Below, one piece after another: positions 1-64,000 of a stretch of 64,000 bases of DNA. The notes beneath the pieces are model-generated. The model searched no databases. It saw nothing but the letters and a program-made list of their open reading frames with translations, and was not told the DNA's origin. The position numbers were made by a program, and so were the translations under genes. The stretch comes from Candidatus Bipolaricaulota bacterium (GTDB lineage Bacteria > Patescibacteriota > Patescibacteriia > UBA11705 > DATKZF01), in NCBI GenBank assembly GCA_035528115.1, contig DATKZF010000002.1:69751-133750 (forward strand), given 5' to 3'. The stretch's first letter is position 1. The number at the start of each line of letters is the position of its first letter.

Positions 1-251
1 CGTCGCGCAGGACGCCATCAGAAACGTGACGCACGTGAACATTGACGCCATTCTCGCGAACCTCTTCATTTCGAATTCTCCCCCGCCGCTCGTTGCGACG
101 CGTGGAATGTTTCCGATTCTCATTCTCAGAATCTGGGAATCTCCCAAACTGTACTCGCTTCAGAGCGAAACGCTTACGGTTTGAGAGCCGAAAGGATTTA
201 CCTCTCGGCCGCTCCTCCTTGTTGATGTGATGTGATGCAGCTTCGCGGAAG

Positions 252-986
252 CTACTGGGACTTGCCCTTGTGCAGGTACAAGTTCCAATCGACCTTGCGC
301 TCGGCCGCGGCGGTCTCGGGAGCGTCTCCGCCCCCCATGACCGTCACGTTCGCGTCCTCGGCCTCGACGTTCACGGTCTTGTAGACCACGATCGTCTGCC
401 TACCGGCGGAAGGAATGTACTCCGGCCGCGGCAAGGGCATGGGCCGCGCGATGAGCTGCGTCTTCTGACGGGGACGCCGCGCGACCTGCGTGACCTTCAC
501 GCAGTCACTCTGACAGCCATCCGCCGTCGGCCGACACCGGAGCCGGTACCCTGGAAGGCACTGGCTCGGCGGGGCCGCGGTGAGCTGCACGGGTCGCTCG
601 CCGCAACCGTCGCCGAAGCATTTCTGCTCCAGCGCGTCGAGCCGCCGTCCGTGCTCCTCGATCTCCGGCTGGACGACGCCGATAGCGTCTGCCAGACGCC
701 CCACCTGGCTGGGCAGAACTTCCAACGAATGGTTGAAGTCCTGCCGCAAGGAATCGACATCGGCCATGTTCTGGGCAGCCAGCGCCGCCGTGTCTCCGAC
801 CACAGGAATCAATCCCGCAATCGAAGCGGCATTCTGGCCGCCCAGCGACCTTGCCTCCTCCGCCTTGACCCAGGCGGCGCCGCCGGTCTCGCCAACGGCA
901 GACACCCTCTGGCTGTTGTAGAACAAGTAGACCAGGACGGCGACCGAAGCCGCCGCCACCACAGCCGCCAGAATCTTTCGTCCCAT
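252..986 (-). CDS. Hypothetical membrane-anchored protein encoded in a GC-rich island. It has one N-terminal TM helix and a Cys-containing extracytoplasmic region
   Basis: ORF of 244 aa with N-terminal hydrophobic helix (ILAAVVAAASVAVLVYLF). Visibly GC-rich versus the flanks. AAGGAGG lies 7 nt upstream of the ATG (reverse complement of 987-1010). No recognisable family. Confidence 0.45.
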   Translation of the reverse strand: MGRKILAAVVAAASVAVLVYLFYNSQRVSAVGETGGAAWVKAEEARSLGGQNAASIAGLIPVVGDTAALAAQNMADVDSLRQDFNHSLEVLPSQVGRLADAIGVVQPEIEEHGRRLDALEQKCFGDGCGERPVQLTAAPPSQCLPGYRLRCRPTADGCQSDCVKVTQVARRPRQKTQLIARPMPLPRPEYIPSAGRQTIVVYKTVNVEAEDANVTVMGGGDAPETAAAERKVDWNLYLHKGKSQ

Positions 987-1228
987 GATGAATTCCTCCT
1001 TTCATGGGTTCGTAGGTTTCGTCCGTAAACTCGCCACACATCGCTTTATTCTTACCTCTAAAAATAAAACGATTTAAGGCGAGAAACCCCTTGTTTTAGC
1101 CACGATTCTGGCTATTTTATTTAACCGTTCAGTATAGCATGCTTTTAATTTTTTGTCAATACTTTAAACTCCCTTTTAAAAAACTCCAGGCGCGTTCATG
1201 GAACGCGCCTTTTAAGGTGAAAAAACTA

Positions 1229-2128
1229 CTAGATGATCATCGCCAGGAGAGCCCCGAGACCCATGGCGATGATGGAAAAGGCGATGACCTTCACCAGCAG
1301 GTCGCTGTCGCCGGAGCGATCATCGCCCTCCCCGGCCTGTCCGGCGGAGCCTTTCGGACCTTGCGGACCGACGGGACCCTGCGGACCTTCCGGACCGGCG
1401 AGTCCCTGCGGACCTTCCGGACCGACGGGTCCCTGCGGGCCTTCCGGACCGACGGGTCCCTGCGGGCCTCGGGGTCCTTCCAGACCCTGCGGGCCGGGCA
1501 CGGGTTCCGGCCTCCCCGAATCGTCTTCGACGATCGGCGGAGGCGCTTCGGGTTCTTCCGGCGGCTCCACCACACGGGTGGTGAGAGCCGCCGGATCCAC
1601 GACCGCGATGAGGCGGTGGCACCCGGGACAGATGAGCTCCTGCCCGGGCAAGGCCTGCTCCCGCGCGACCTCGATCTGCCGGTCGCAGGCCGCGCAGACG
1701 AGAGGAACGAACTCTTCGCCCTCCTCGTCGTCGCCGTCGCCACCATCCTCGTCATCGGTGGCGTCGTCGCCGTCGCCGTCGTCGTCGTCGGCTGCGTCGC
1801 CGTCGTCGTCGTTGTCCGGAGGCGGAGCATCCGCCCCCACCGGCATGTCCAAGCCGCAAACGTTGCACTGCGACGCGCCCGCGGGCACGGCCGCGCCGCA
1901 CTCGCACTTACGGCCGGAGGGCTCGGGTACGGACACGATCTCTCCTTTCTCGTTGATGCGAAATACCTGCCCGCACGTCTCGCAAATCCCCTCCGCGCCG
2001 GCGACAGCCGACTCGTCAGGGATCTCGCCCACCGCCCCGCAATCGGGGTTAGGACATTTGATCTCCATCTCTGTTTCCTTTCCCCAAATCCCATGGATTC
2101 GGGTTTTTTTATCATCCAAGTCCAACAC
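1229..2128 (-). CDS. Zinc-ribbon / collagen-like (G-P-X-G-P) repeat protein with acidic D/E tract and C-terminal TM anchor. Likely true start at 2068 (MEIKCPNP)
   Basis: Translation shows three CxxC...CxxC ribbons (CPNPDCG...CETCG; CECG...CNVCG; CAACD...CPGC). It also shows a long D/E/G-rich acidic stretch and about 12 tandem GP(E/Q)GP(Q/V) triplet repeats typical of collagen-like Gly-X-Y. The C-terminus is hydrophobic ([23 protein letters not shown]). Alternative-frame ORFs 1233..2156(+) and 1291..2151(-) are low-complexity artefacts of GC richness. An RBS-like GGAAAGGAAAC lies before the internal ATG at 2068. Confidence 0.6.
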
Positions 2129-2229
2129 GGAAAATCATAATATATTATCACATTAAGTAAATTCTGTCAATAGATAAAAGAACTCATTTCAATTAAAAAA
2201 AGCTATTTCCCTTGGGAAAATAGCCTTTG

Positions 2230-3663
2230 CTAGTAGTTCAACGCATTAACCTGATTGACGAGCGCTTCGAGCTGAGCCGAAATCCCATCAATCTTTTGCT
2301 CAGTCGACGGCGTCTGCCGCTCCACCTTCGCGGCCACCACAGCCTCCTTTGGGGGGGCAATGATTTTGTCCGCGGGGAGCGGCGAGAATTCGCACTGAAG
2401 CGCGGCCGAGGAGACCGATTCCAGCCGTTTTTGCGTCTCCTCGATTTGCCGAGAAAGCGCGGCGATCCGAGCCTCGAGACGAGCAAATTCTTCTCGCGAC
2501 CCATTTGAATCACCGGCCTTTTCGAGCGCCTTTTGCGCCCGCTTCAGCTGTTTGCCTTGCTCTTGCAGGGTCTCGCCTTGGGCTTTCATTTCTTTCGAAA
2601 TTCGAGCCAGTTTCTTGCTCATATCGCCTGCCGCGTATTGCCGAGCCTCCACAGCGGTGAGGCGTCTGCCGAGATTCCTGCCGAGCTTACGAAACGGTTC
2701 AGCCCATTTCTTCCCGGCCGCGGCAAGAACGGCCAGAGCCTTTTGCGTCGCGTTCTGGATTTCAAGCCGAGCCGCGGCCGCTTCCTTCAACGCCTGGTCG
2801 ACGGCCTGCTCCTTCTTGGCATACTTCTCCGAGAAAGAGCTCATGCCTTCAACCACGCGCATAACCTGCGGCAAGCTTTTTTCCAGCGCGCTCTGCGTGG
2901 CCTGACTTTTCTTGACGCTGATTTCAGCCTGCTTGCCGATGTCTCTGACCTCGATCAAAGACTTGTCGAGGTCTTGTCGCTTGATCGCGCTCGCGTCAAG
3001 CGCGGTAATCCTCCAACCCAGCTCAGAATAGTGCCTTTCCTGCAGGTAGAAAGCCACAATACCCGGGCTGCCAAGCACGACGGCGATGAGGATCGCCAGG
3101 GCTGGTCGCCAGTCATAGCTGACGCCACCATCAACGATCTTGTCCGGGTGGGATTCCACTCCGCCGGGCACAATATTATGCCAGTCATTCTCTGCCGGCA
3201 AAGCCCCCGACGGCGCGGCCGGCTGATCTTCAGCCGACTCTCCAGGAGGCTCAACAGTCTCTTCGTGTTGGAGAGCCGCCGCCGCAGGTGCCTCGGCATG
3301 AACCTCCACTACGAAATCCGCCGGCTGAGCATCCTGATGGATCAAGCCGTATTCAGCTATCGCAGCAGCCAGATCATCCGTGACGGACTCCTCATCATCG
3401 GTCTCAGACGCCGCGGCCGCGTCAGCGGACACCGGAACCAAGTCCCGATCCGTCGGATCCGGCGCTTGAGCAGGGCGACGCTGAACCGGTGTCGAAGTCG
3501 GCATCTGATCAAATGCCTCGAACGTCCCCTCTCCGTCAACCAAGCGTAGCATTATGCCGCAGTTGGGGCATGGTTCTTCATGCCCCTGATTCAGGTTTTC
3601 CACTTCAGCGGGTTTGACTTGCAAAGTCGCCTCGCAAATGGGGCACTTCCATGGCGTTTGCAT
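2230..3663 (-). CDS. N-terminal Zn-ribbon, central TM helix, C-terminal long coiled-coil protein (GC-rich island)
   Basis: The N-terminus has CPICE...CPNCG. A TM segment follows (ALAILIAVVLGSPGIVAFYL). About 280 aa of heptad-like K/E/A/Q-rich sequence complete the protein. GGAGG lies 5 nt upstream of the ATG. Composition is GC-rich like its two neighbours. Confidence 0.55.
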   Translation of the reverse strand: MQTPWKCPICEATLQVKPAEVENLNQGHEEPCPNCGIMLRLVDGEGTFEAFDQMPTSTPVQRRPAQAPDPTDRDLVPVSADAAAASETDDEESVTDDLAAAIAEYGLIHQDAQPADFVVEVHAEAPAAAALQHEETVEPPGESAEDQPAAPSGALPAENDWHNIVPGGVESHPDKIVDGGVSYDWRPALAILIAVVLGSPGIVAFYLQERHYSELGWRITALDASAIKRQDLDKSLIEVRDIGKQAEISVKKSQATQSALEKSLPQVMRVVEGMSSFSEKYAKKEQAVDQALKEAAAARLEIQNATQKALAVLAAAGKKWAEPFRKLGRNLGRRLTAVEARQYAAGDMSKKLARISKEMKAQGETLQEQGKQLKRAQKALEKAGDSNGSREEFARLEARIAALSRQIEETQKRLESVSSAALQCEFSPLPADKIIAPPKEAVVAAKVERQTPSTEQKIDGISAQLEALVNQVNALNY

Positions 3664-8663: not shown

Positions 8664-9046
8664 GGGGATGATCGGCTTCGACGGGAGTCCTGAAATCAAA
8701 AGCGCGAAATGAGCTGTCAGCCGCTCATTAAACTGCTGGCAAATCCAATAAGTGCAACAAATGTACTGGCGAAAGTCAAAAGCTTATTTCAAGCTCCGGC
8801 TTTTGCTCCCGTTCTTGCCTAAAAGTGAGAACCGTCCGCTTGCCGATACTCGATGAGCAAACCGGACGTCAATATCGAGTTAGGCCGTCGCCATGCCAAA
8901 AGCGCCGACTGAAATAAAACGGCTCGGCCCGCTCGGAGTTTCGTTTATCTTTAATCCGGCGGTCTTAAATGATAAGATAAACTATTTTCGTAGATGCTTT
9001 TTATTTCAACTTCCAGACGCGGGTTCGATTCCCGCCATCTCCACCA
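8664..9046 (+). ncRNA. ssrA: tmRNA (SsrA)
   Basis: The 5' end GGGGATGATCGGCTTCGACGGG matches the canonical tmRNA 5' acceptor/D-arm consensus (GGGG..G.TTCGACGGG). The 3' end ACGCGGGTTCGATTCCCGCCATCTCCACCA is a tRNA-like T-arm plus acceptor with encoded CCA. The 5' GGGGATG pairs with 3' CATCTCC. It sits directly after smpB. The tag-peptide reading frame was not confidently identified. Confidence 0.85.
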
Positions 9047-11188: not shown

Positions 11189-11265
11189 GGATCGGTGGTG
11201 TAGCTGGTTAACACGCCGCCCTGTCACGGCGGAGATCGCGGGTTCGAGTCCCGTCCGATCCGCCA
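11189..11265 (+). tRNA. tRNA-Asp (anticodon GTC), CCA encoded
   Basis: Cloverleaf read by hand. The acceptor is GGATCGG/CCGATCC, with D-stem GTGT/ACAC. The anticodon stem is CCGCC/GGCGG with loop CTGTCAC (U33, GTC, A37). The T-arm is GCGGG-TTCGAGT-CCCGT, the discriminator is G, and CCA follows. It is flanked by the complementary ATTCAGGCTG / CAGCCTGAAT leader-trailer pairing. Confidence 0.88.
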
Positions 11266-38998: not shown

Positions 38999-39421
38999 CT
39001 AGCCGATCGCCGAAATCGGCTCGCGGTCGTCGCAGATGGCCTCGACCGCGCGGGAGATTGCCCACGCCCACAACGCGGCATAGGCAGGCAGGATAAGGTG
39101 CCGGAAACCCTGGCGATCGCGAATCGGCTGCGGCTCATCCAGATTGTGATTGACAGAAACCACCAACAGCGGGATCTCCTGCCTGATCGCCGCCTGGTGA
39201 ATCTCCAAGACGAGCGGCGTGAGCATTCGATGCTCCCGCCCCCATTCCGCGAGGATGACGAGATCGACTCCCGGAGGCAAATTGATGCCTCCATTGTCGA
39301 GCTGAGCTCGCAGCTCCCGCTCGTCAATGTAGTCGAAATCTTCCTTCAGACACTCTCGACACCATGCTTGCGCGCTTCCGGCCGCGGCCCGATTGTATCC
39401 AATCACCAACACATTCGGCAT
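38999..39421 (-). CDS. GC-rich orphan hypothetical protein with alternating beta-alpha (flavodoxin/Rossmann-like) pattern
   Basis: 140 aa. VLVIGYN...DLVILAEWG...PLLVVSV hydrophobic strands alternate with helices. A G-rich RBS lies upstream. A bidirectional terminator hairpin sits at 38941-38975 (AGAGCCAAGTCTGACCTGGCTCT). Confidence 0.4.
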   Translation of the reverse strand: MPNVLVIGYNRAAAGSAQAWCRECLKEDFDYIDERELRAQLDNGGINLPPGVDLVILAEWGREHRMLTPLVLEIHQAAIRQEIPLLVVSVNHNLDEPQPIRDRQGFRHLILPAYAALWAWAISRAVEAICDDREPISAIG

Positions 39422-42298: not shown

Positions 42299-43012
42299 CT
42301 AGTACGGGTAGCAGGCGCCATCGTTGTCGCAGTACGTGCCGGTCGGACAGTCGTTGTCCGATCCGCAGGTGGCAGGCCGAGGCTCGGGCGCGCTCTGGTA
42401 ACAGAGCCCGTCCGAGGAGCAGAAGGTTCCGACCGGACAGTCGCTGGCCGACTGGCAGCCGGTCCGCGTGAGCGGGACACAGCTACCATCCGCGGCGCAG
42501 AAGTTGCCGACCGGGCAGTCGTAGTCCGAGATGCAACCGGCCTGCATCGCATAGCAGGCACCGTCAGCACCGCAGTAGAAACCGATATGACAGTCGGCAT
42601 CCACGCGGCAGCCTCCGACCGGACCGTCTTCGACCACGACCGCGACTTGCGAGACGCTGCAATAGCCGTCCCAGTCGCAGAACATGTCGGACCGGCAGTC
42701 CCAGTCGCTGGCACAGGGGTACAACCACTCACAGTAGTTGACCCCCGGGACAGCCATCGGCTGACAGTACATGTTGAACGGACAATCATCGTCCGTCCAA
42801 CAACCACCGTCTGTCGCGACCGCCTCGTCCACGTAGCCGGGCTCGCCGATGCAGGTGTTTCCCACATCGGTGCCGGTGCAGACCGTCCCGTACGGACAGT
42901 CGTAGTCGCTGTAGCACTGATCGTCGATCGGCTCGTGGTAGCCGACCGAGCCGAAGCAGCCGTTGAAGAAAGCGCACAGGACGCACAACGCCGCAAACAT
43001 CATGCTTTTCAT
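42299..43012 (-). CDS. Secreted cysteine-rich repeat protein with about 8 tandem DxDCPxGxxC(x)2-4DG(x)C modules; GC-rich
   Basis: The start is at the internal ATG at 43012, preceded by GGGGAG. The signal peptide is MKSMMFAALCVLCAFFNGCFG. Repeats such as SDYDCPYGTVCTG, TDDDCPFNMYCQP, SDWDCRSDMFCDWDGYC, VDADCHIGFYCGADGAC, SDYDCPVGNFCAADGSC, SASDCPVGTFCSSDGLC and SDNDCPTGTYCDNDGAC are read directly. Confidence 0.6.
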   Translation of the reverse strand: MKSMMFAALCVLCAFFNGCFGSVGYHEPIDDQCYSDYDCPYGTVCTGTDVGNTCIGEPGYVDEAVATDGGCWTDDDCPFNMYCQPMAVPGVNYCEWLYPCASDWDCRSDMFCDWDGYCSVSQVAVVVEDGPVGGCRVDADCHIGFYCGADGACYAMQAGCISDYDCPVGNFCAADGSCVPLTRTGCQSASDCPVGTFCSSDGLCYQSAPEPRPATCGSDNDCPTGTYCDNDGACYPY

Positions 43013-43196
43013 GATCTCTCCCCTTTTCTTTTCCCGCCTTGGCGGGATTTTGAAGTTCTTGCAATTCCAGTAAATCATTATATTATATCATATTTAATCA
43101 AAAAAGTCAATGATTGTAGTCTTTTTTTATCTAATTTTGGATAAAAAAAGCGAAATGCAAACATTCCGCAAACAAATAGAAATGGATAATGTATTA

Positions 43197-54141: not shown

Positions 54142-55236
54142 CTAGTCGACGTCTGCCGCGGGGAATGCCCCGGACAAGAAGTTCTCGGACTCGGCCGCCT
54201 TGGCCAGGTCCTGCTCGATCAACTTCGCCCAGAGCTCGACGACCGTGAGCGGGAGCTCGAAGATGAACCGGTCGCCGCGCGCGACCATGATCTCCTCGAG
54301 CAGGCCGAGATCATCCGAATTGCCCAGCAATCCGACGGCTGTGACCGGGGTCGGGTCGCCGAAGACCGCCTTGATCTTCTCGCCGCGAATGAAGACGCCC
54401 GGAGCCACTTCGTAGCCGGGCCAGGTGTCCGTCGCCGCGGTCTGGTAGAACTGCTCGACGACCGCCCAGAAACCCTCTTCCTCGCGGAAGTACTGCTCAA
54501 CCGTCTTGAAGAAACGGCTGAGCAATCCCGGCATGAAGCGCTGGAGCAGCTGCTCCTTCGAGCAGAGCGCCTCGGACGCGGCTCCGAGCATGTGCACGTC
54601 GAGGGGGAGCAAGTGCGCGAGCTCGGGGTACTTCTCGAACACCGGCCGGAACCCGGCCGCGAGTTCGGAAGCGCTCAAGCCGAACGCCTTGTCGCCGAGC
54701 GGACCGGACTGCCGCACTTCCGTTTCCTTGAGGAAGAAGCATGGCCCGTTCAGAACCTCGAAGATGGGGTGGCCGAGCCACTCCTCCCCTGCCTTCTCGT
54801 GCAGGTAGCCGGACAGCCGAGGCAGGCCGGCCTTGATGAAGTCGGTGATCGCCGCCTCCACGCGGGCGAAGAACGCCCGCGTGCCGCCGTCGTAATGCGC
54901 TAGCAGCTGCCGGCGCCGCCACGCCTTGCGCACGTCCACTGCATGCGTTCCGCGCTCCTGCGGATCCTGCTCGCTCGAGACCTCCAGCATGCGTAGGGGA
55001 GTAGCCGCCGCCTTCTTCTCCGCCTTGGCCGCGCTGGGCGGCACGTCGATCTGGAACACCTTCGGCTCTGACTTCGGCCGAGCCTCTGGAGGAACATCGG
55101 TCTGAAAGCCGTTGCCCGCCGGTGCCGCCGCCGAGTCGAGCCGGACAGTATTCGGTCCCGGCGTGAAATGCACCGCCGGATCCACGGTCGTGCCCGGCTC
55201 CGAAAAAGAAACGCCCTTGCCCTTCTTGTCCGTCAT
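54142..55236 (-). CDS. GC-rich orphan hypothetical protein (364 aa), Ala/Pro-rich N-terminal region
   Basis: AGGAGG lies 6 nt upstream of the ATG. It is much more GC-rich than the flanks. No family recognised. Confidence 0.45.
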   Translation of the reverse strand: MTDKKGKGVSFSEPGTTVDPAVHFTPGPNTVRLDSAAAPAGNGFQTDVPPEARPKSEPKVFQIDVPPSAAKAEKKAAATPLRMLEVSSEQDPQERGTHAVDVRKAWRRRQLLAHYDGGTRAFFARVEAAITDFIKAGLPRLSGYLHEKAGEEWLGHPIFEVLNGPCFFLKETEVRQSGPLGDKAFGLSASELAAGFRPVFEKYPELAHLLPLDVHMLGAASEALCSKEQLLQRFMPGLLSRFFKTVEQYFREEEGFWAVVEQFYQTAATDTWPGYEVAPGVFIRGEKIKAVFGDPTPVTAVGLLGNSDDLGLLEEIMVARGDRFIFELPLTVVELWAKLIEQDLAKAAESENFLSGAFPAADVD

Positions 55237-56012: not shown

Positions 56013-57032
56013 TTATAATTGAAAAAAATCTTTAAGTATTGGGACAAATGAGTATTTTTTTACTCTATCAACTAATTCATGTTCTATATTTTTATTGTTA
56101 CAATCTTTTATATAATGACTAATAAGATAAATAGCTTCTTTACTAGTTGTGTAAAGAAATCTTTCTGGAAAAAAATCAGGGTAACACAAATTATTAGGTA
56201 ATACCGGGATACATCCGCATGCAACAGCCTTCATGACTGCATAACCAAAATTCTCTTGTTTTGAACAACTTAAAACAATACGTGATTGAGCAAGTGTTTG
56301 AATATGCTCAGTTGAAGATTGCTCCGCAATAAATATTATATTTTTATATCGTTGAAGCATTTTAAAATATTTATTTTTTCTCATAATATTCATGGGCTGC
56401 GGGAAAGTTACCACGAACCCAACAGCAGGCAACTTTGATACGATGCAACAAAATTGCTCAATACCTTTATCGTCATCGAGCCTATGTGGAAATATTACAT
56501 CATATTTTATTTTATGTGATAAAAGACATTTCCTAAAAGCATCCATTCCCCATGGTGAAACCTTTATCTTTTTGCAAAAATCCTGAGGACACTCTTCAGC
56601 AAGAAACCTTGATGGCACATAAATCCTATCATAAATACTAGCCCAAGCGAATTCTGTTTTTTTTAACCACGGCCAAGAATATAAATCATTCGGCAAAAAA
56701 GAACCTCCATGCAACAATGCGCCCAATCGACAAATAATTCCTTGCTGAGTATAATAATATTTCAATAGATCAATGCCGGGATTAAAAAAATCCAAAAATA
56801 AAATTCGGTCAACTTTCCCTAATGCAATAAGTTTTTCAATGAGTTTAAATTGTCCAGTAATATAATCTGAGTCATCCAATATTCCTCCTTTAATGCAATT
56901 ATCAAGTGGTTTAATATATCCAACCATCGTTGCCTTTATACCAATATGTTTAATGGATAATTTCAATCCACGCACAATATCTTCAAATGAAGTTCCTAAA
57001 TAGTAAGGTGGGATAGCGATAATATTCTTCAT
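56013..57032 (-). CDS. Glycosyltransferase, GT-B fold (GT4-like)
   Basis: The C-terminal ENFGYAVMKAVACGCIPV matches the E-x7-E / ExFG nucleotide-sugar binding motif of GT4 enzymes. 339 aa. Confidence 0.65.
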   Translation of the reverse strand: MKNIIAIPPYYLGTSFEDIVRGLKLSIKHIGIKATMVGYIKPLDNCIKGGILDDSDYITGQFKLIEKLIALGKVDRILFLDFFNPGIDLLKYYYTQQGIICRLGALLHGGSFLPNDLYSWPWLKKTEFAWASIYDRIYVPSRFLAEECPQDFCKKIKVSPWGMDAFRKCLLSHKIKYDVIFPHRLDDDKGIEQFCCIVSKLPAVGFVVTFPQPMNIMRKNKYFKMLQRYKNIIFIAEQSSTEHIQTLAQSRIVLSCSKQENFGYAVMKAVACGCIPVLPNNLCYPDFFPERFLYTTSKEAIYLISHYIKDCNNKNIEHELVDRVKKYSFVPILKDFFQL

Positions 57033-57040
57033 AATATATT

Positions 57041-58108
57041 CTAAGAATACCTAAGAATATCCGCGGTATTAGCTAACACGTCTTTCGTCAAAATAATATC
57101 ATGCTGTTGGACCTGCGACAATGGCACGTCCTCTCTATATTCTCCTTTTTCCTTTCTTAATTCATTCATTAATAATGTTGGAATAGTAGCCGCTGTCATC
57201 CTCACGTTGAGTTCTAAGACTGATATCTTCTGGGTCTCCGATTCAACCATGAAATCAACACCAAAAAAGCCTTCATATCCTTCAAGGAAAATATTTATTT
57301 TACTTAGCACATCACGTAACTGTCTTAAAATTATGTCATCTAAAAATTCCAATGGCAATATTTTAGATCCTACAAAATATTTATTTTCCGCGATAAGTTG
57401 TTCTGAAAATCCAAAAATAATGGTGTCTCCCGATTCTCTATATCGCACACATTGTATGCTATGAGGTATTCCTAACGCGAGAGCTTCCCAATACCATTCA
57501 TCAGAAGTCTTTGAAAAAAGATTTCTAAAATTTAAATCACATTTTATTTCCGAGCTCAAAAACACCGTATACCCCCCGGATCCAAATCTTCTTTTAAGAA
57601 AACCTGGCTTATGAATGCACTCAAAATCATCCAACTCTTTCACATTATTAATTTTCTTCCATTCCGGAGTATAACTCTTTAATACATCCTTTTGAGATAA
57701 TTTATCATTATATTTTTTAAATTCCGAATAATTGTAATTAATGGATAGTTTGTTTTCCTTAGCTAATGCATCTGCCTTAGGATGAGGTATTGATACCCAG
57801 AGAGAAGAAATTTCATTCTTAGTTATTATGTCATCTTTTACTCTCTCAAATACCGACACTCTTGGATCCATGGCTTTTCTTACCGGCAATATGTTATTAC
57901 CATGATTATATTCAATACCTCCAAAATCATCATTTACTATCACATATTGCCCATCCAATATCCATGGTAAAAGATTTTCATACTTCCACATGGCCGGGAT
58001 TTCGTATAACATAGATTCGCTGATAGCACGAAAATCTGACAGATAAAGCGTCCGTTTATTGCAAAGAAAAGGAATTTCTGATGGAATTAACTGTTTTGTT
58101 AGAATCAT
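57041..58108 (-). CDS. ATP-grasp domain ligase
   Basis: LKRRFGSGGYTVF (the Gly-rich ATP loop) and GVDFMV...ELNVRMT (C-terminal Mg/ATP site) are typical of ATP-grasp carboxylate-amine ligases. Confidence 0.55.
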   Translation of the reverse strand: MILTKQLIPSEIPFLCNKRTLYLSDFRAISESMLYEIPAMWKYENLLPWILDGQYVIVNDDFGGIEYNHGNNILPVRKAMDPRVSVFERVKDDIITKNEISSLWVSIPHPKADALAKENKLSINYNYSEFKKYNDKLSQKDVLKSYTPEWKKINNVKELDDFECIHKPGFLKRRFGSGGYTVFLSSEIKCDLNFRNLFSKTSDEWYWEALALGIPHSIQCVRYRESGDTIIFGFSEQLIAENKYFVGSKILPLEFLDDIILRQLRDVLSKINIFLEGYEGFFGVDFMVESETQKISVLELNVRMTAATIPTLLMNELRKEKGEYREDVPLSQVQQHDIILTKDVLANTADILRYS

Positions 58109-60063
58109 AAATAATGTATATAAAATTTTTTAAAGTTTATTTGTTTACCGAGCCAGTCTATATCAGGATCAATAGTCCTGAATATAAATAAATCAGAAGA
58201 TGAACTATACTCCGACGAAGACCTATCAATTGCAAGACTGTCGAGAAAACGATCAGCTCTTTTTCTCTCACTGAAATGCATTGGTAATTTATACTGACTG
58301 AAATTCCTTCTTATTTCAATCAAATACACCCCTGCGCGAGAAAGGATCTGTTGCAATTTCAACAAATTTTTCCCTATCATCGTTTGATTTAAAATAACAT
58401 AAAATTCTTTTACATTGTTATTCTTTACAAGCATCCTAAGGCCAGCAAAAATAAATGCCAAAGCACCATATATAGTATACGGCGGATCAGTAATAAATGT
58501 CTGAACTTCCGGGAAACCATCCGCCTTAATTATCTTCCTAATGTCAAATTTTATAACTTTAAATCGTGGAGAGGCCTTTTTAATAATTTTTGTTATATTA
58601 TCGTCTTTTTCTATAATAACAGGGTAAGCCCAAAATTCATTAATAAATTCTAAACTTACCAAGTCATCATCTCCTATTATGCCAAACTTTAAATATTCAG
58701 TAAAAGGGTAGCGTTCTTTAAATAAATCAAAACGTCGTTTACGTGACGCAAAATCACAAGGGAATTGATTTAAATCACAATTTGGAACAAAAGATGGATT
58801 CTCTATTAATTCAAAAAAATCTTTTTTTGTAAAATGAAAATTGAATATTTTTTTCACCTTACCGTTCTTTTCAACCTTGACTATTTCATTCTTTATTCCC
58901 ACATCAATAAGAACGCCTATATTGTCAAAATCCGCTGAACTATTCTTAATAAACTCATCAACATTATTACTGTTTTGTAAATTCCTCATTAAACAAGCAA
59001 AATCCATCTTTTCAATCATGTTATTTTTTCGCCAAGATGAAACTGTTTTCCTATCAGACAATTGTATATCTAAGGGTATCAGCCTGATATAATCCTCATA
59101 TGCTTCTTCTATTCTAAAATCATAATGAATAGGCTTTAATTTTTCTAAAACCGTCCTCCTCTGCATTGGTTTTCCAGAAAATGTGTTTATCACGTGGAAC
59201 GAAAAATATCCTCTTTCAATTAATGCTAAAAAGTATTCAACAAGATTGCTCTGTTGATTTATTCCTGCACGGTGAGACACATGAATCACTAAAAAATCAT
59301 TCATAAGCATAAAACGATATCCTAATTCATATAATCTGAACATCAAAAAATCATCTTCAAATCCATAACCCGAATAATTCGGAAATCCTCCCAGTTTTTT
59401 AAAAATATCCTTTTTGCAGAATCCGAAATTAGCGATAAATGTTGACTGCTTAATATTTTGAAAAAATGGATCACGAAACAAAGCAGGAGGAAGTCCGGCA
59501 TTATGTTTTAAAAACCCAATTTCTCCGTTCTCCATTTTATTAAGTATCTTTTTTGTATTTTTGGGAAACCATCCCTGCCTTGTCCACAATCGTTTTGCGC
59601 CGTATCCATAATCGAAATTCCTCGAAAGACAAAAAATTTTCTGAAAAGCGCTATTATCTAAAATTATTGTATCATCATCAACAAAAACAAGCAGATTGCT
59701 ACTTGCCCTCTCAGCGCCGATATTCCTTGCTTTACCATAACCATATGATTGCTTGTTATTTATAAGCGAAAAGGCTATGGGCGTTGGCCTTCTTTTGTTC
59801 AATTCACGAACCGTGTCTCGTATTAATGGGATGTTATTTTTTTTATGGTGACTATTTTCAATTAAAATTACCTCAAAATATTTAAATTTTTGTGCAAAAA
59901 TTGCAGTCAAACAATGAAGGATACAATTTCCTTTCGCTTTCCCTGGGTCACAGGAAAGGATAATACAAGAAAGTTTAATTATTTTTTTTCCCATACAGAT
60001 CATAACAAGCACTTTCAATACAATCCACGTAAACTCATATAATAAAGAATAGCGAACTTTCAT
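58105..60063 (-). CDS. Fusion protein: N-terminal GT2 glycosyltransferase plus C-terminal GDDD/DPPY-motif domain (DUF43/BpsA-like aminopropyltransferase- or amino-methyltransferase-like)
   Basis: GT2 motifs: CIILSCDPG, GYGKARNIG, VFVDDDT (DxD) and GFEDDF. The C-terminal roughly 250 aa carry KFGIIGDDDLVSLEF and FITDPPYTIYG. The ATGA start overlaps the stop of the ATP-grasp gene. Confidence 0.6.
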   Translation of the reverse strand: MKVRYSLLYEFTWIVLKVLVMICMGKKIIKLSCIILSCDPGKAKGNCILHCLTAIFAQKFKYFEVILIENSHHKKNNIPLIRDTVRELNKRRPTPIAFSLINNKQSYGYGKARNIGAERASSNLLVFVDDDTIILDNSAFQKIFCLSRNFDYGYGAKRLWTRQGWFPKNTKKILNKMENGEIGFLKHNAGLPPALFRDPFFQNIKQSTFIANFGFCKKDIFKKLGGFPNYSGYGFEDDFLMFRLYELGYRFMLMNDFLVIHVSHRAGINQQSNLVEYFLALIERGYFSFHVINTFSGKPMQRRTVLEKLKPIHYDFRIEEAYEDYIRLIPLDIQLSDRKTVSSWRKNNMIEKMDFACLMRNLQNSNNVDEFIKNSSADFDNIGVLIDVGIKNEIVKVEKNGKVKKIFNFHFTKKDFFELIENPSFVPNCDLNQFPCDFASRKRRFDLFKERYPFTEYLKFGIIGDDDLVSLEFINEFWAYPVIIEKDDNITKIIKKASPRFKVIKFDIRKIIKADGFPEVQTFITDPPYTIYGALAFIFAGLRMLVKNNNVKEFYVILNQTMIGKNLLKLQQILSRAGVYLIEIRRNFSQYKLPMHFSERKRADRFLDSLAIDRSSSEYSSSSDLFIFRTIDPDIDWLGKQINFKKFYIHYL

Positions 60064-60066
60064 GAA

Positions 60067-60384
60067 CTAATAGTGAAACTTTAGCACTCTCCCTTTTCTC
60101 AGCAAAAAGCATAGCTTAAATAGATTCGCTACTTTTAACTGACGAATTGTTTTTTTAGAACAAGTAACTAAGTCGATGTGTATGTAAGAATTTTCGGGCC
60201 AGACATGTACAGCAATATGGCTTTCCTCTAATATAAAAACGATTGAACTGCCTTGAGGATGAAATCCATGAACTGTTTTTTTTACAATATGCAAACCTAA
60301 TAGAGAAACAAACATCTCTATTCTGGACATAAGTTCTCTTTTTTTAAAAATATTGGGATCATCGCCAAAACCTTCTAGCACCAT
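60067..60384 (-). CDS. speH: S-adenosylmethionine decarboxylase proenzyme (pyruvoyl-dependent, small bacterial/archaeal SpeH/SpeD type)
   Basis: 105 aa. FILEESHIAVHVWPE matches the self-processing E|S site and HTWPE signature of class-1 AdoMetDC. Confidence 0.78.
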   Translation of the reverse strand: MVLEGFGDDPNIFKKRELMSRIEMFVSLLGLHIVKKTVHGFHPQGSSIVFILEESHIAVHVWPENSYIHIDLVTCSKKTIRQLKVANLFKLCFLLRKGRVLKFHY

Positions 60385-60483
60385 ATGACAAGTAATGTGT
60401 GTATGCTCGCCCCATTGTTTTTCCCAATTATCTACTGGACTAAAATTATATATTTGGATTGTCTTATTTGGACATGATATAGA

Positions 60484-60852
60484 TTAAACAATTATCCATG
60501 ATGATAACACTTCTCCCATATATCCCTCACACACTGAAACTGAAACAGTTTTAAAATTAAAATCAGCAGCGATCTTTTTCTTTATAAATATTGCTATATT
60601 CTCCGCCGTTGTAGGCTCGTTCCAGCCATGCTCGTTAAAAACATCATTAACGTGTCTGTGATCAAAAATTCCTATAATGTCTTTGATTTTTTTAAAATCT
60701 GCAATCATGCCATTCTTTAATTCGCCCGATTCAATTTCTACTTTCACAAGATAAGTATGCCCATGCAGTCGCGCACAATCCTTTGAAATCAAATTACTGC
60801 TGTCGGGCAGTGTGTGAGAAGCATGGAAAAAATCTGATACTACAAGCTTCAT
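60484..60852 (-). CDS. 6-pyruvoyl-tetrahydropterin synthase family protein (QueD/PTPS-like)
   Basis: 122 aa. The Zn-binding CARLHGHTY (CxxxHGH) and second motif D..H.HV (FDHRHVNDV) are present. Confidence 0.75.
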   Translation of the reverse strand: MKLVVSDFFHASHTLPDSSNLISKDCARLHGHTYLVKVEIESGELKNGMIADFKKIKDIIGIFDHRHVNDVFNEHGWNEPTTAENIAIFIKKKIAADFNFKTVSVSVCEGYMGEVLSSWIIV

Positions 60853-60895: not shown

Positions 60896-61705
60896 TTATA
60901 AACCCTTTACAATCATCATTTTCCGATCGCCCAGCCTCATTTTTCTTGACTTTTCCGCGTCAGGCGTTTCCGTCTCTTCATAAGGCCGGAAAACAATGCC
61001 GTTTTCCGAATACAAATCATGAACGGCCGAGAGCAAATTATCGTATTTATATTTGAATTTCAATCCTTTTCTGGTGCCCGGATCATTGGTGATAAATTCG
61101 TTTCTGTCATATCCGCGAACGACCAACATGTGAAACAGCGGGCCCGGAGCGGTAAAATTGGGATTATCCAAGTCGCGGCCCGAAGCCGGCAAAATGATCA
61201 AATGTCCCTTGACCAATTCTTCCTTTATTCTTTGTTCCGAAACATCGCTTGATATTTCAACATCCAATTTAAAATATTCCTTGGCCATTCGAGCCACCTC
61301 AGCCACGTTGGTGTCGGTGTACAAGCCGAGATTGGTCGTTTCCCAAGCCACCAATTTTTTCAATTCCTCATCCATAATGGCGGCGTCCAGCGGCTGTTTG
61401 GCGAAATATTTGTATGCCGTGATCAAGCTGGCTTCTTCGCACGCTTCCTGATACGGCAATTCCCAATTGCCAAAAGGCGCTTGCGACGCGAACGCCACGT
61501 CCAAATCAAAAGTGGCGGGCAATGAAACCTCTTGCTCAGCCGGGGCATGCTCAAGCGTCGCGGGAGATTCTACCGTTGTTTCTGGCGTCGCTTCGGTTGT
61601 TAATGCCTCGTTTTCAAGATTGTTCGCAAGCAATGAAATTCGGCCGCAACCGGACAAAATTATCAATAAAAACGGAAAAAACGCGATTTTTGTTAATTTA
61701 TTCAT
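60896..61705 (-). CDS. Lipoprotein (lipobox LSGC) with possible papain-like/C39-like peptidase domain
   Basis: MNKLTKIAFFPFLLIILSGCG is a signal peptide plus lipobox. QAPFGNWELPYQEACEEASL with a downstream His (VKGHLIIL) is weakly reminiscent of C39-like peptidases. This is low confidence. Confidence 0.4.
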   Translation of the reverse strand: MNKLTKIAFFPFLLIILSGCGRISLLANNLENEALTTEATPETTVESPATLEHAPAEQEVSLPATFDLDVAFASQAPFGNWELPYQEACEEASLITAYKYFAKQPLDAAIMDEELKKLVAWETTNLGLYTDTNVAEVARMAKEYFKLDVEISSDVSEQRIKEELVKGHLIILPASGRDLDNPNFTAPGPLFHMLVVRGYDRNEFITNDPGTRKGLKFKYKYDNLLSAVHDLYSENGIVFRPYEETETPDAEKSRKMRLGDRKMMIVKGL

Positions 61706-62174: not shown

Positions 62175-62297
62175 AAACGGAGAAAGCGGAGAGGCGAGCT
62201 CTCCGCTGGTATTGGATTGTTGATGGATTTGCCTTTGGGCAATTTGTTGGGTTGATGGCGTTTTTTCCTCACCAACGGAAAGCTTGCCTTTCCGCTC
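62175..62297. repeat. GC-rich palindromic intergenic element (copy 2 of 2): CGGAGAGGCGAGCTCTCCG hairpin plus GGAAAGCTTGCCTTTCC hairpin
   Basis: It is directly 3' of rpmA. It matches 17151-17280 after rpmE in sequence, order of sub-elements and spacing (AAACGGAGA(A)AGCGGAGAG(G/A)CGAGCTCTCCGCTGG(T/A)ATTGGA...). Confidence 0.65.
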
Positions 62298-62344: not shown

Positions 62345-64000
62345 TCAGCCGCCGCTCGGCGAGATGTCGCCGGTCGAGGTCAGACTGAACTTGATGCCGC
62401 ATGTGTACGCGCTGCCGTCGAAACCGCAGCGGCGAAACGGTCCGACATCATCGTAGAGCGAATCTCCATACTGCGCCCAAGCGCCCGACTCGCTCATGTA
62501 CGAGACGCTATACTGGCCGGCCAAGGTATTGGCGGGCAAAAGCAGACGGTAATAGCCGTCCGCGTCGATTGCCATTTGCATGCCGGATTGAAGCGACCAG
62601 CCCATGTCCGGCAATTCTCCAACCGCGAAAGCCGCGTTGGGCTTTCCGGTCAAGTATTGGCTGTTAAAGGCCAAACAGCGCTGACCGCAGGATTTCGCCG
62701 CCCAAAAATCGGGCGTCTGATCCGGCGAAGACTGAGGCGGCAATGACGAAGAAAAATCTTCGTCCGTTTGACCATCGCAGTTATTGTCCGCGTTGTCCTC
62801 CACTTCGGCGCTCGGCAAGACTTCATCTTGGATCGTCTGCCAGACGCCGTTGTCGCAATACTCGATTCGAGGCCGGCATTCTCCCACCCCGATCGTCTCG
62901 CTCGCTTCGGAATACGAAGTTTGCATCTGATGATCCACGCATTCTTCGTCGTCTTGCGGCGGATCGGGATATTGATTCCAGCCGTCGTCGGTCAGGCCGT
63001 CGCAGTCATTGTCTTGCCCGTCGTTTTGCTCCGGCTCGGGCAGGACCTCGTCTTGAGAAATGACCCAGTGTCCGCTTTGGCAGACCGAAATCTCCGGCCG
63101 GCAAGGACCGATGCCGAAGGTTTCGATCGATCCGGAGTAGGCGCTGAAAATTTGACCTTCTTCGCATTCGACAGGTGTCGAAAAATCCTCGTCCGTTTCG
63201 CCGTCGCAGTCATTGTCGAGGCCGTCCGCCGTTTCCGAGATTGGCAAGACCTCGTTTCTGATCTGATGCCAATCTCCGGCAAAACATTCTTCGATCTTGG
63301 TCCGGCACGAACCGACGTTCACCGTCTCGCTTGAACCGGAATAGGTTTCCAGCTCATCCCCATCGAGGCATGAGTTGCCTCCTCCTTCGGGATTTGCGAA
63401 ACACCGGTTGATGTTCTCGACGGTGATCAGGTCGCCGAAACCGGCGACGCTCATGAGCATTTGAGCCGCGTCCACGGTCCAGATCTGACCGCTCGCGTAG
63501 CCCATTTGCGAAAATACTTGAAAATTCGCGAACGGTCTGGCCACTCCATTGCCTGAAATGACAAAGACCGCGCCCTGGCCAAAGCCCTGATTGGTCAGAG
63601 CCGGTTCGGGTTTGACCAGCCGTCCGTCTCTGATGTGCAGAATGCCACCCTCATCGCAAACGGACAGCTTTTGCTGACCTTGCGACGCGGACAGCACGGG
63701 CATGTCTTCGGGCAGATAGCCCCAGCTTTCCGCGGCCAGCGCGGAAGCGAACTTGTAGATCATGCAGCCCTGGTCATTGGCCGATTGCTTTTCCAGCAGG
63801 TAATGCCAGCTGGCGCCGGCCACGCGAAAGACTTCGCGATAAGGCTGCCAGTCAACCGTCCAAGATTCCGGATAGCAGTCGAGCTCTGTCTGACTGACCT
63901 CCAGAATCAAGTTGGAGTCGAAGCCGTGAGCCAGGAAGACTTCCCAATTCACGACCCAGTGCTTGGCGCCATCGAGGAGAACGTAGACCTTGGGCTCGAG
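62345..64000 (-). CDS. Large GC-rich secreted/surface protein with three tandem MopE-like putative metal-binding repeats (D-x-D-N-D-C-D-G-x-T-D-E). 5' end beyond window
   Basis: The 5' end runs beyond the window, as the reading frame stays open to 64000. Three repeats are read directly: ...CRTKIEECFAGDWHQIRNEVLPISETADGLDNDCDGETDEDF, ...CRPEISVCQSGHWVISQDEVLPEPEQNDGQDNDCDGLTDDGW and ...CRPRIEYCDNGVWQTIQDEVLPSAEVEDNADNNCDGQTDEDF. Confidence 0.6.
   Translation of the reverse strand, partial: LEPKVYVLLDGAKHWVVNWEVFLAHGFDSNLILEVSQTELDCYPESWTVDWQPYREVFRVAGASWHYLLEKQSANDQGCMIYKFASALAAESWGYLPEDMPVLSASQGQQKLSVCDEGGILHIRDGRLVKPEPALTNQGFGQGAVFVISGNGVARPFANFQVFSQMGYASGQIWTVDAAQMLMSVAGFGDLITVENINRCFANPEGGGNSCLDGDELETYSGSSETVNVGSCRTKIEECFAGDWHQIRNEVLPISETADGLDNDCDGETDEDFSTPVECEEGQIFSAYSGSIETFGIGPCRPEISVCQSGHWVISQDEVLPEPEQNDGQDNDCDGLTDDGWNQYPDPPQDDEECVDHQMQTSYSEASETIGVGECRPRIEYCDNGVWQTIQDEVLPSAEVEDNADNNCDGQTDEDFSSSLPPQSSPDQTPDFWAAKSCGQRCLAFNSQYLTGKPNAAFAVGELPDMGWSLQSGMQMAIDADGYYRLLLPANTLAGQYSVSYMSESGAWAQYGDSLYDDVGPFRRCGFDGSAYTCGIKFSLTSTGDISPSGG

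Follow-up and report, generated by a model that had tools for sequence, protein, structure and literature searches.

A predicted secreted cysteine peptidase with four-cysteine, MopE-motif repeats in a conserved slot of Patescibacteria genomes

We asked what is encoded by the G+C-rich open reading frame (ORF) that closes a 64,000-nucleotide stretch of DNA from Candidatus Bipolaricaulota bacterium (contig DATKZF010000002.1 of assembly GCA_035528115.1, positions 69,751 to 133,750, placed in Patescibacteriota by GTDB; the whole stretch is called the window here), whether the gene came from a distant donor and whether its product handles a metal. An initial annotation, made from the letters of the DNA, had implied that foreign, possibly metal-handling surface proteins had entered a small genome. 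The evidence argues rather for a core extracellular enzyme that has been inherited within one Patescibacteria clade. On balance we favour the reading that this inherited gene encodes a secreted, cell-wall-directed cysteine peptidase with disulfide-braced spacers of a calcium-binding type.

The ORF lies on the minus strand at 62345-64000, where translation showed 551 codons open from base 64000 downwards and a stop codon at 62345-62347. These are the last 551 codons and the stop of a gene of 767 codons; the first 216, for the signal peptide and the Peptidase_C39_2 domain, fall outside the window, past its end. That the ORF ran past the window edge had been seen at once, and the whole gene could be recovered: a protein search returned a full-length protein of 767 residues (P0001) that was 100% identical to the window part, which makes up its residues 217-767. 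P0001 is encoded on a contig (L001) of the Logan assembly of run SRR8554643, recorded for 3 samples; L001 had 0 mismatches to the window over 10,459 nt and runs 1,859 nt past the window end. The N-terminus of the full-length protein is a Sec-type signal peptide (MKRLAKIVLVAIVFMFSTTAMA/EE), which bears out the earlier suggestion of a secreted protein, and the domain architecture could now be resolved: the signal peptide is followed by Peptidase_C39_2, an EccB-like repeat domain, three repeats with four cysteines each and a C-terminal beta-sandwich that resembles CBM48. An AlphaFold (AF2) model of P0001 had a mean predicted local distance difference test score (pLDDT) of 74.5, with values of 80-92 in the middle domain, 81-88 in the C-terminal domain and 60-80 in the repeats. 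Every domain is of a known kind and the four-Cys repeat is a variant of a common module; the family itself is uncharacterised. An NCBIfam scan of the window fragment matched no family, and a phmmer search of full-length P0001 against PDB chains gave a spurious MBP-fusion as its sole match.

The gene sits in a conserved slot. The shared order is a lipoprotein gene of ~200 codons, the window gene, rpmA on the other strand, a smaller C39_2 lipoprotein gene, variable genes, nifU, nifS, ftsW and murD; this order is kept in the related loci L002, L004 (= GCA_049319825.1) and L006, and its equivalent in the window is at 49-64 kb. The slot is marked by rpmA (ribosomal protein L27; 61831-62121, plus strand), a convergent neighbour of the window gene, for which L001 and all related loci gave a match to Pfam Ribosomal_L27. 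The smaller Peptidase_C39_2 protein (60896-61705, minus strand) has 269 residues and a lipoprotein-like N-terminus; it was identified by Pfam (E 5.2e-8) and by synteny, its G+C content at third codon positions (GC3) is an ordinary 0.52, and its gene is found by rpmA in every related locus, including the variant locus with an M23 peptidase that is described below. The four genomes (window, L002, L004 and L006) are about equidistant from one another, and identities among them are 55-59% for the product of the window gene, 54-64% for the C39 lipoprotein, 68-73% for L27 and 68-75% for NifS. As the slot is conserved and the gene has diverged in step with its neighbours, these sequences indicate that the gene is inherited in a Patescibacteria clade and not recently imported.

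The distribution of the protein was as follows. A homolog search with the N-terminal 416 residues returned at least 8 proteins. Full-length relatives were found only in records under the titles Patescibacteria, Parcubacteria group, Candidatus Falkowbacteria or Kuenenbacteria and in a few metagenome-assembled genomes titled 'uncultured Gammaproteobacteria'. The latter have the same gene order, and one of them (L008) has sequences identical to those of L002. On its own, the C39_2 domain also occurs in Atribacterota and others.

Peptidase domain and likely substrate

Peptidase_C39_2 (PF13529) was matched by residues 30-168 of P0001, beyond the window, at E 2.9e-14 and 54.3 bits (cut-off 24 bits). 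Gln34, Cys46, His151 and Asp167 were invariant in 13 of 13 aligned family members, and one ortholog had already been named 'C39 family peptidase' by NCBI. When AF2 models were searched against the PDB with Foldseek, the N-terminal domain matched the C39-like peptidase 3ERV (E 1e-5), the PCAT1 peptidase domain and staphopain; a viral fold library returned generic papain-fold matches only, among them one phage 'lysozyme' and some 'peptidase' entries, and was not decisive. The protein 3ERV from Bacillus anthracis is a single-domain papain-fold member of Peptidase_C39_2 and resembles P0001 in its hidden Markov model (HMM) match, in the invariant Gln/Cys/His/Asp and in its fold. In contrast to such single-domain enzymes, P0001 carries ~560 residues of binding and spacer domains after the peptidase domain. 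The window protein is predicted to be an active extracellular cysteine peptidase that uses Cys46, His151 and Asp167 together with Gln34. A C39 bacteriocin-processing peptidase (PF03412) was considered and rejected, as P0001 gave no PF03412 match at E<=0.1, lacks an ABC domain and carries a Sec signal peptide of its own. No ABC transporter gene was found in the conserved neighbourhood of the window gene and its relatives.

Next comes the question of what the peptidase would cut. Among 28 proteins that contain the full middle domain, 12 carried Peptidase_M23, 8 carried Peptidase_C39_2 and 12 carried MopE motifs. One M23-type protein, P0033 (from a Candidatus Falkowbacteria record), was 33% identical to residues 204-487 of P0001 over 287 residues (E 2e-46); it has an M23-type N-terminus with HxxxD and HxH and one four-Cys repeat, and its gene (locus L049) occupies the same position, next to rpmA and to the gene for the C39_2 lipoprotein. 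Thus M23 proteins of Patescibacteria such as P0033 have the middle domain, the four-Cys repeat and the genomic slot in common with P0001; they differ from it in having a metallopeptidase as the catalytic domain, a C-terminal domain of a different type and a non-homologous upstream partner gene. M23 peptidases are peptidoglycan endopeptidases. Because C39 is swapped for M23 in the same cassette and slot, we propose that the target of the window protein is the cell wall and that the protein would cleave peptidoglycan. The substrate would most likely be the peptide part of the wall, either of the cell's own wall during growth or division or of the wall of a neighbour; the gene is present almost universally and in synteny with housekeeping and cell-division genes, which speaks somewhat more for work on the cell's own wall than for a weapon.

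The domains that follow the peptidase may hold the enzyme on the wall polymer. The middle domain (63401-64000, minus strand; P0001 residues 206-416, the first 11 of which lie outside the window) consists of beta-rich modules of ~45-50 residues. Foldseek matched it to the soluble domain of EccB1 (5cyu; E 1.5e-4, probability 0.97), with template modelling (TM) scores of just 0.10-0.19 over multi-domain alignments. An exhaustive search with the part of the domain inside the window gave 253 cluster representatives, ~30 of which contain the whole 200-residue domain. Many extracellular proteins contain tandem copies of the 45-residue submodule; among 60 of them, 3 match PF05108 (EccB) and others carry PG_binding_1 or CHAP. 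PF05108 had no match in P0001 itself. The fold of the beta-beta-beta-alpha modules of 45-50 residues is like that of the EccB repeat domains of type VII secretion (5CYU, 3X3N) and of PlyCB, a wall-binding protein to which the EccB1 repeats have been tentatively likened (PMC4769845). The window protein differs from EccB in that it has neither a membrane anchor nor a type VII secretion context, and the link to wall binding is a suggestion from the literature. The C-terminal beta-sandwich (62348-62713, minus strand; P0001 residues ~646-767) was modelled at pLDDT 73-88 in two AF2 models. Its best Foldseek match was the carbohydrate-binding module (CBM) of AMPK beta2 (4rer_B; probability 1.0, root-mean-square deviation 3.3 A over 102 columns, E 0.046), which was placed first again with the second model of the C-terminal half; further matches were the CBM48 regions of branching enzyme and trehalohydrolase and BoGH13ASus (E 0.06-0.4). 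In these models the EccB-like character of the middle domain and the CBM48-like character of the C-terminal domain are weak leads only.

Several points weigh against a cell-wall peptidase with calcium-type spacers. C39-type peptidases are best known for leader-peptide cleavage, not for action on cell walls. P0033 scored 25.9 bits for M23, which is below the Pfam cut-off of 28.7. The substrate assignment is built on domain swapping and on weak fold likeness (the low EccB1 TM-scores, and E values of 0.05-0.1 for CBM48), and the resemblance of EccB1 to PlyCB was called weak by the authors of the EccB1 paper themselves (PMC4769845). The function of the peptidase family is a prediction from sequence and models. 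In addition, the repeats were modelled at pLDDT 40-80 and the models contain no ions; because the second AF2 model (residues 417-767, from an alignment of 6 sequences) gave the repeats a pLDDT of 40-60, Foldseek results for them are not trustworthy. The disulfide pairing and Ca2+ geometry of the repeats are thus predictions, as the confidence of the models is moderate to low and the module is present in no solved structure.

The main rival is that the enzyme is a secreted protease or adhesin whose targets are proteins and not the wall; it might process or degrade proteins on the surface of the cell itself or of a host, with the repeats and the sandwich as adhesion modules. The papain-fold relatives of the C39 domain, PCAT1 and staphopain, cleave proteins or peptides, the 45-residue submodule is also found with the fn3, cohesin, PKD and Ig domains that are typical of adhesins, and a giant protein of ~3000 residues and a PEGA protein are encoded just upstream in relatives. 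This explanation deserves to be kept in mind but we regard it as rather unlikely, as the exchange of C39 for M23 within one cassette and slot speaks for the cell wall, and Peptidase_C39_2 appears in a survey of phage lysins as a catalytic domain, confined to phages of Gram-positive hosts (PMC8223927).

If the cell-wall reading is right, the slot is relevant beyond this window. Patescibacteria have few recognisable cell-wall enzymes, and a slot in which one binding cassette is joined to a peptidase of either the C39 or the M23 type is a candidate route to remodelling or attacking cell walls. This exchange in a fixed slot is one of the two points of note at the locus; the other is its base composition.

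Base composition, partner gene and descent

The gene had been described as GC-rich, and it is: the window part has a GC content of 0.57 and a GC3 of 0.69, and the whole gene has a GC content of 0.57-0.58 and a GC3 of 0.72, compared with a background GC3 of 0.529 +/- 0.046 (n=21 genes). Amino-acid composition was rejected as the cause, since it predicts a GC3 of 0.56 (observed, 0.69-0.72) and the excess is spread across almost every amino acid. Within the gene, GC3 was highest in the C39 domain (0.80), followed by the C-terminal domain (0.74), the middle domain (0.73) and the repeats (0.64). In relatives the excess was +0.10 to +0.12 (L004 and L006) and about +0.03 (L002). A scan of species-representative genomes gave 11 further family loci, for a total of 14 independent loci (L008 and L009 were counted as duplicates of L002 and L004); in none of these 11 loci, nor at the M23-variant locus L049, did the family gene fall below the median GC3 of its neighbours (+0.01 to +0.22). 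Since a gene so diverged should have equilibrated its third positions, the GC3 excess looks like a standing property of the locus, and the raised GC would carry no trace of a recent import. Biased gene conversion, codon-usage selection and repeated allelic replacement are candidate causes of this small puzzle.

A similar excess is seen in the gene upstream. The ~200-residue lipoprotein gene (L001:579-1187, past the window end) is co-oriented with the peptidase gene, lies 24 nt upstream of it and has a GC3 of 0.80. Its homologs were found directly upstream of the C39-type gene in 14 of 14 loci examined, whereas in the M23-variant locus L049 the gene at this position is similar in size and not detectably related. 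Neither Pfam nor the PDB contained a relative of the lipoprotein. Because it accompanies all 14 C39-type genes and an unrelated gene takes its place beside M23, the pattern fits a partner that is specific to the catalytic domain, for example an inhibitor; a single M23 locus stands behind this comparison.

We asked whether the lipoprotein and the peptidase could be a cognate pair, in which the lipoprotein, of an inhibitor or immunity type, would protect the cell from its own secreted wall-degrading enzyme, aimed at a host or a neighbour cell, at a locus that is also a recombination hot spot where GC-biased gene conversion acts on surface-protein genes and causes the GC3 excess. The presence of the excess in both genes of the pair and its recurrence across the family are consistent with this scenario. 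We hold the combined scenario to be improbable.

The initial annotation had hinted at recurrent acquisition from GC-rich donors. In such a reading the gene or its repeats would have arrived recently by horizontal transfer, for example from a myxobacterium, as one case of a repeated uptake of secreted repeat proteins. The composition of the gene, the other GC-rich islands of the window and the fact that the best non-family matches of the repeats are Myxococcota proteins (36-39% identity) speak for it. However, the two-gene unit is in the same slot of four roughly equidistant genomes with a divergence that is proportional to that of the neighbours. The GC3 excess runs through the whole gene, with its peak in the C39 domain and its lowest value in the repeats, and it recurs at 14 loci, where all family members have a GC3 at or above that of their neighbours. 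Moreover, the repeats are a distinct four-Cys variant and not the six-Cys myxobacterial form, and no close GC-rich donor was found, the best non-self match being 53-59% identical and itself from Patescibacteria. We therefore consider recent transfer very unlikely. A compositional island is not sufficient to call a transfer, and here synteny and proportional divergence overrule it.

The recurrent import had been linked to a Cys-rich protein at 42.3 kb, and this link did not hold. The ORF concerned (42299-43078, minus strand; GC3 0.81; likely start MKSMMFAALCVLCAFFNGC) encodes a Cys-rich, probable lipoprotein with repeats of the form C..DCP.G.FC..DG.C, of the DUF7107/Dickkopf_N kind. As these repeats are different, lack the MopE motif and have no detectable homolog (none was found in a large protein search), the protein neither supports nor tests a common origin.

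Cysteine-rich repeats, calcium and copper

The three tandem repeats that end in EVLP-x2-E-x2-D-x2-DN[DN]CDG-x-TD are present, as initially reported; they are encoded on the minus strand, which the initial annotation had left unstated. Repeat 1 is at 63182-63373 (P0001 residues 426-489; it ends in DNDCDGETD, with DNDCDG encoded at 63200-63217), repeat 2 at 62978-63169 (residues 494-557; DNDCDGLTD) and repeat 3 at 62753-62944 (residues 569-632; DNNCDGQTD); the ends of repeats 1-3 read NEVLPISETADGLDNDCDGETDEDF, DEVLPEPEQNDGQDNDCDGLTDDGW and DEVLPSAEVEDNADNNCDGQTDEDF, respectively. The number of repeats and the conserved acidic end stand as they were given. Two details had to be corrected: the unit has 64 conserved residues, with motif starts spaced 68 and 75 residues apart, and not ~50 residues, and the third copy has DNNCDG and not DNDCDG. 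Without gaps, the units are pairwise identical at 30-33 of 64 positions. The motif Dx[DN]xDG is present three times in 551 residues, compared with once in 16,916 residues of the other window genes, and at least three copies were obtained in only 1 of 20,000 shuffles of the protein; thus the count is beyond chance.

The motif family was checked with HMMs. The window fragment matched PF11617 (Cu-binding_MopE) at E 2.8e-7 and 31.1 bits, and full-length P0001 matched it in two stretches at 29.5 bits; the gathering cut-off is 27 bits. The assignment passes by a narrow margin: the match covers only positions 14-30 of the 30 positions of the model (the best stretch is in repeat 3, fragment residues 398-414), and the ortholog P0002, with equal repeats, scored 18.2 bits, below the cut-off.

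The nearest relatives of the repeat region outside the family are tandem repeats of 'MopE-related' proteins of Myxococcota. The motif had been called largely restricted to myxobacteria and other delta-proteobacteria; the named matches outside the family are indeed mostly from Myxococcota, but the motif is also common in Patescibacteria. We aligned 11 units from Patescibacteria with 6 myxobacterial units and found one module, Y.G...T.G.G.C......C..G.W......L P..E..D..DNDCDG..D, in both groups. The Myxococcota repeats are 35-44% identical to those of the window and have in common with them the acidic end (E-x-x-D-x-x-D-N-D-C-D-G-x-x-D-E), the beta-hairpin part that precedes it (Y-x-G-x-x-x-T-x-G-x-G-x-C...C..G.W) and the tandem arrangement in secreted proteins. 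On the other hand, the myxobacterial units (~58 residues) have six cysteines (C-Y..G, G.C, ..C, W..C, E.C and DNDC) and the window units have four, with other residues in place of both the W..C and the E.C cysteine and with the first cysteine offset by 8 columns. With four cysteines per unit, the window repeats were not counted as members of the six-Cys module. The window repeats also differ from the Myxococcota ones in being embedded in a Patescibacteria peptidase and in matching half of the Pfam model. Because W..C and E.C are lost together, the alignment suggests that these two cysteines pair with each other in the six-Cys form. A profile of the 17 repeat units had no match in the PDB even at E<=10, and the module has no solved structure. 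The three repeats are predicted to be small modules with two disulfides each, and together they may form a stiff, protease-resistant spacer between the binding domains.

Which metal, if any, would such repeats bind? The signature Dx[DN]xDGxxD is complete in all three of them, and the invariant positions of the module are taken by Asp, Asn, Glu and Cys. Calcium loops of the form Dx[DN]xDG are recurrent and widespread (PMC3123361), and PepX has xDxDxDGxxD as a crystallographic calcium loop (PMC10536834). A further point for calcium is that MopE*, a methanotroph protein with one copy of the motif, is protected from degradation by CaCl2 (PMC3423442). The linear signature is common to the window repeats and to calcium loops, such as the EF-hand-like loops of many folds, the loop of PepX and the thrombospondin type 3 repeats, and TSP_3 and TSP3_bac matches were present among proteins related to the window protein. 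Unlike these calcium loops, those of the window have a cysteine at loop position 4; the likeness is one of linear signature. From the sequences we infer that the repeat loops would bind Ca2+ rather than copper, and in the reading that we favour the Dx[DN]xDGxxD loop would be the calcium site of each spacer module.

The alternative is that the protein binds or handles copper in the manner of MopE/CorA of methanotrophs. The Pfam family, which is named for copper binding, was matched above its cut-off, and weak Cu(II) binding has been ascribed to the N-terminal 24 residues of MopE* (PMC3423442). When the canonical motif copy of a family member (P0016) was compared with MopE* (PDB 2VOV), it matched residues 6-44, a stretch within the N-terminal 46 residues for which the MopE* crystal shows no electron density (PMC3423442). 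The Cu(I) site of MopE* is formed by His132, His203 and kynurenine-130, which derives from Trp130 (PMC3423442). As the motif region is unseen in the crystal and outside the Cu(I) site, the name of PF11617 says little about function, and the earlier label of MopE-type metal binding is of little use as a functional one. P0001 did not match 2VOV at E<=1 (phmmer against all PDB chains). The window protein and the MopE*/CorA copper proteins have one copy of a short motif in common, for which there is no solved structure, and no homology elsewhere; membership in MopE/CorA was rejected because there is no homology to the core with the His132/His203/Trp130 site. The repeats have no conserved set of His, Met or Trp ligands, and PF11617 'lacks specificity' for MopE/CorA (PMC6189053). 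A copper protein thus seems highly improbable, and 'Cu-binding_MopE' should be taken here as the name of an acidic Dx[DN]xDGxxD loop and not as evidence of copper binding.

Gene junction and other features of the window

A chimeric assembly joined at 62.2-62.4 kb, for which the sharp shift in composition at the gene boundary might speak, can be dismissed, as the junction is crossed by the identical Logan contig and the adjacency of rpmA and the family gene is kept in L002, L004, L006 and L049.

Between the two convergent genes, a hairpin at 62186-62206 (minus strand) is a likely transcription terminator. Its G+C-rich stem of 8 bp lies 3' of the stop codon, is followed by UUUCUCCGUUUUUUUUU and converges with the end of rpmA. 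RNA folding gave -15.3 kcal/mol (z -4.7), and 0 of 200 shuffles were equally stable. A scan with a consensus terminator model did not call the hairpin at 62186-62206, where the U run is not adjacent to the stem.

Other parts of the window also depart from the background composition. A block of 59-66% GC at 1-3663 contains ORFs at 270-1028, 1139-2140 and 2230-3663, none of which matched Pfam above the cut-off; the last has a zinc-ribbon-like N-terminus (sub-threshold). A short ORF region at 38999-39421 (minus strand; GC 0.61, GC3 0.73) has overlapping ORFs on both strands. The highest GC3 of the window (0.86) is that of an ORF of 364 residues at 54142-55236 (minus strand), which matched no Pfam family and had a marginal tblastn match to a 585-residue gene of L006 that is also GC3-elevated (26% over 133 residues, E 9e-4). 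When the proteins of all GC-rich islands were searched against the related loci with tblastn, this was the only match. RNA genes were rejected as a cause of the GC-rich islands, since Rfam and ARAGORN found in the whole window nothing besides a tmRNA gene (8664-9046; tag ATNVLAKVKSLFQAPAFAPVLA) and a tRNA-Asp gene (11189-11265), and no RNA gene accounts for the composition of the block at 1-3663.

In contrast to these islands, the region 56013-60852 is AT-rich (GC 0.32-0.36, GC3 0.23-0.33). Its five co-oriented genes encode a PTPS protein, an AdoMet decarboxylase-like protein, a 652-residue GT2+BpsA_C protein, an ATP-grasp protein and a GT1 protein. In the three related genomes the slot of this island holds a gene for a protein of 585-617 residues and other hypothetical genes. 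The island looks like a replaced variable cassette, possibly for surface-polymer modification. Finally, in L002, L004 and L006 a PEGA-domain gene and a giant gene lie a few kb upstream of the lipoprotein/peptidase pair, in the part of the locus that is beyond the window; the giant gene (L002:1-8055, L004:1-7517 and L006:1-7497) is cut by the end of the locus in each case, with 2,576 to 3,210 residues called.

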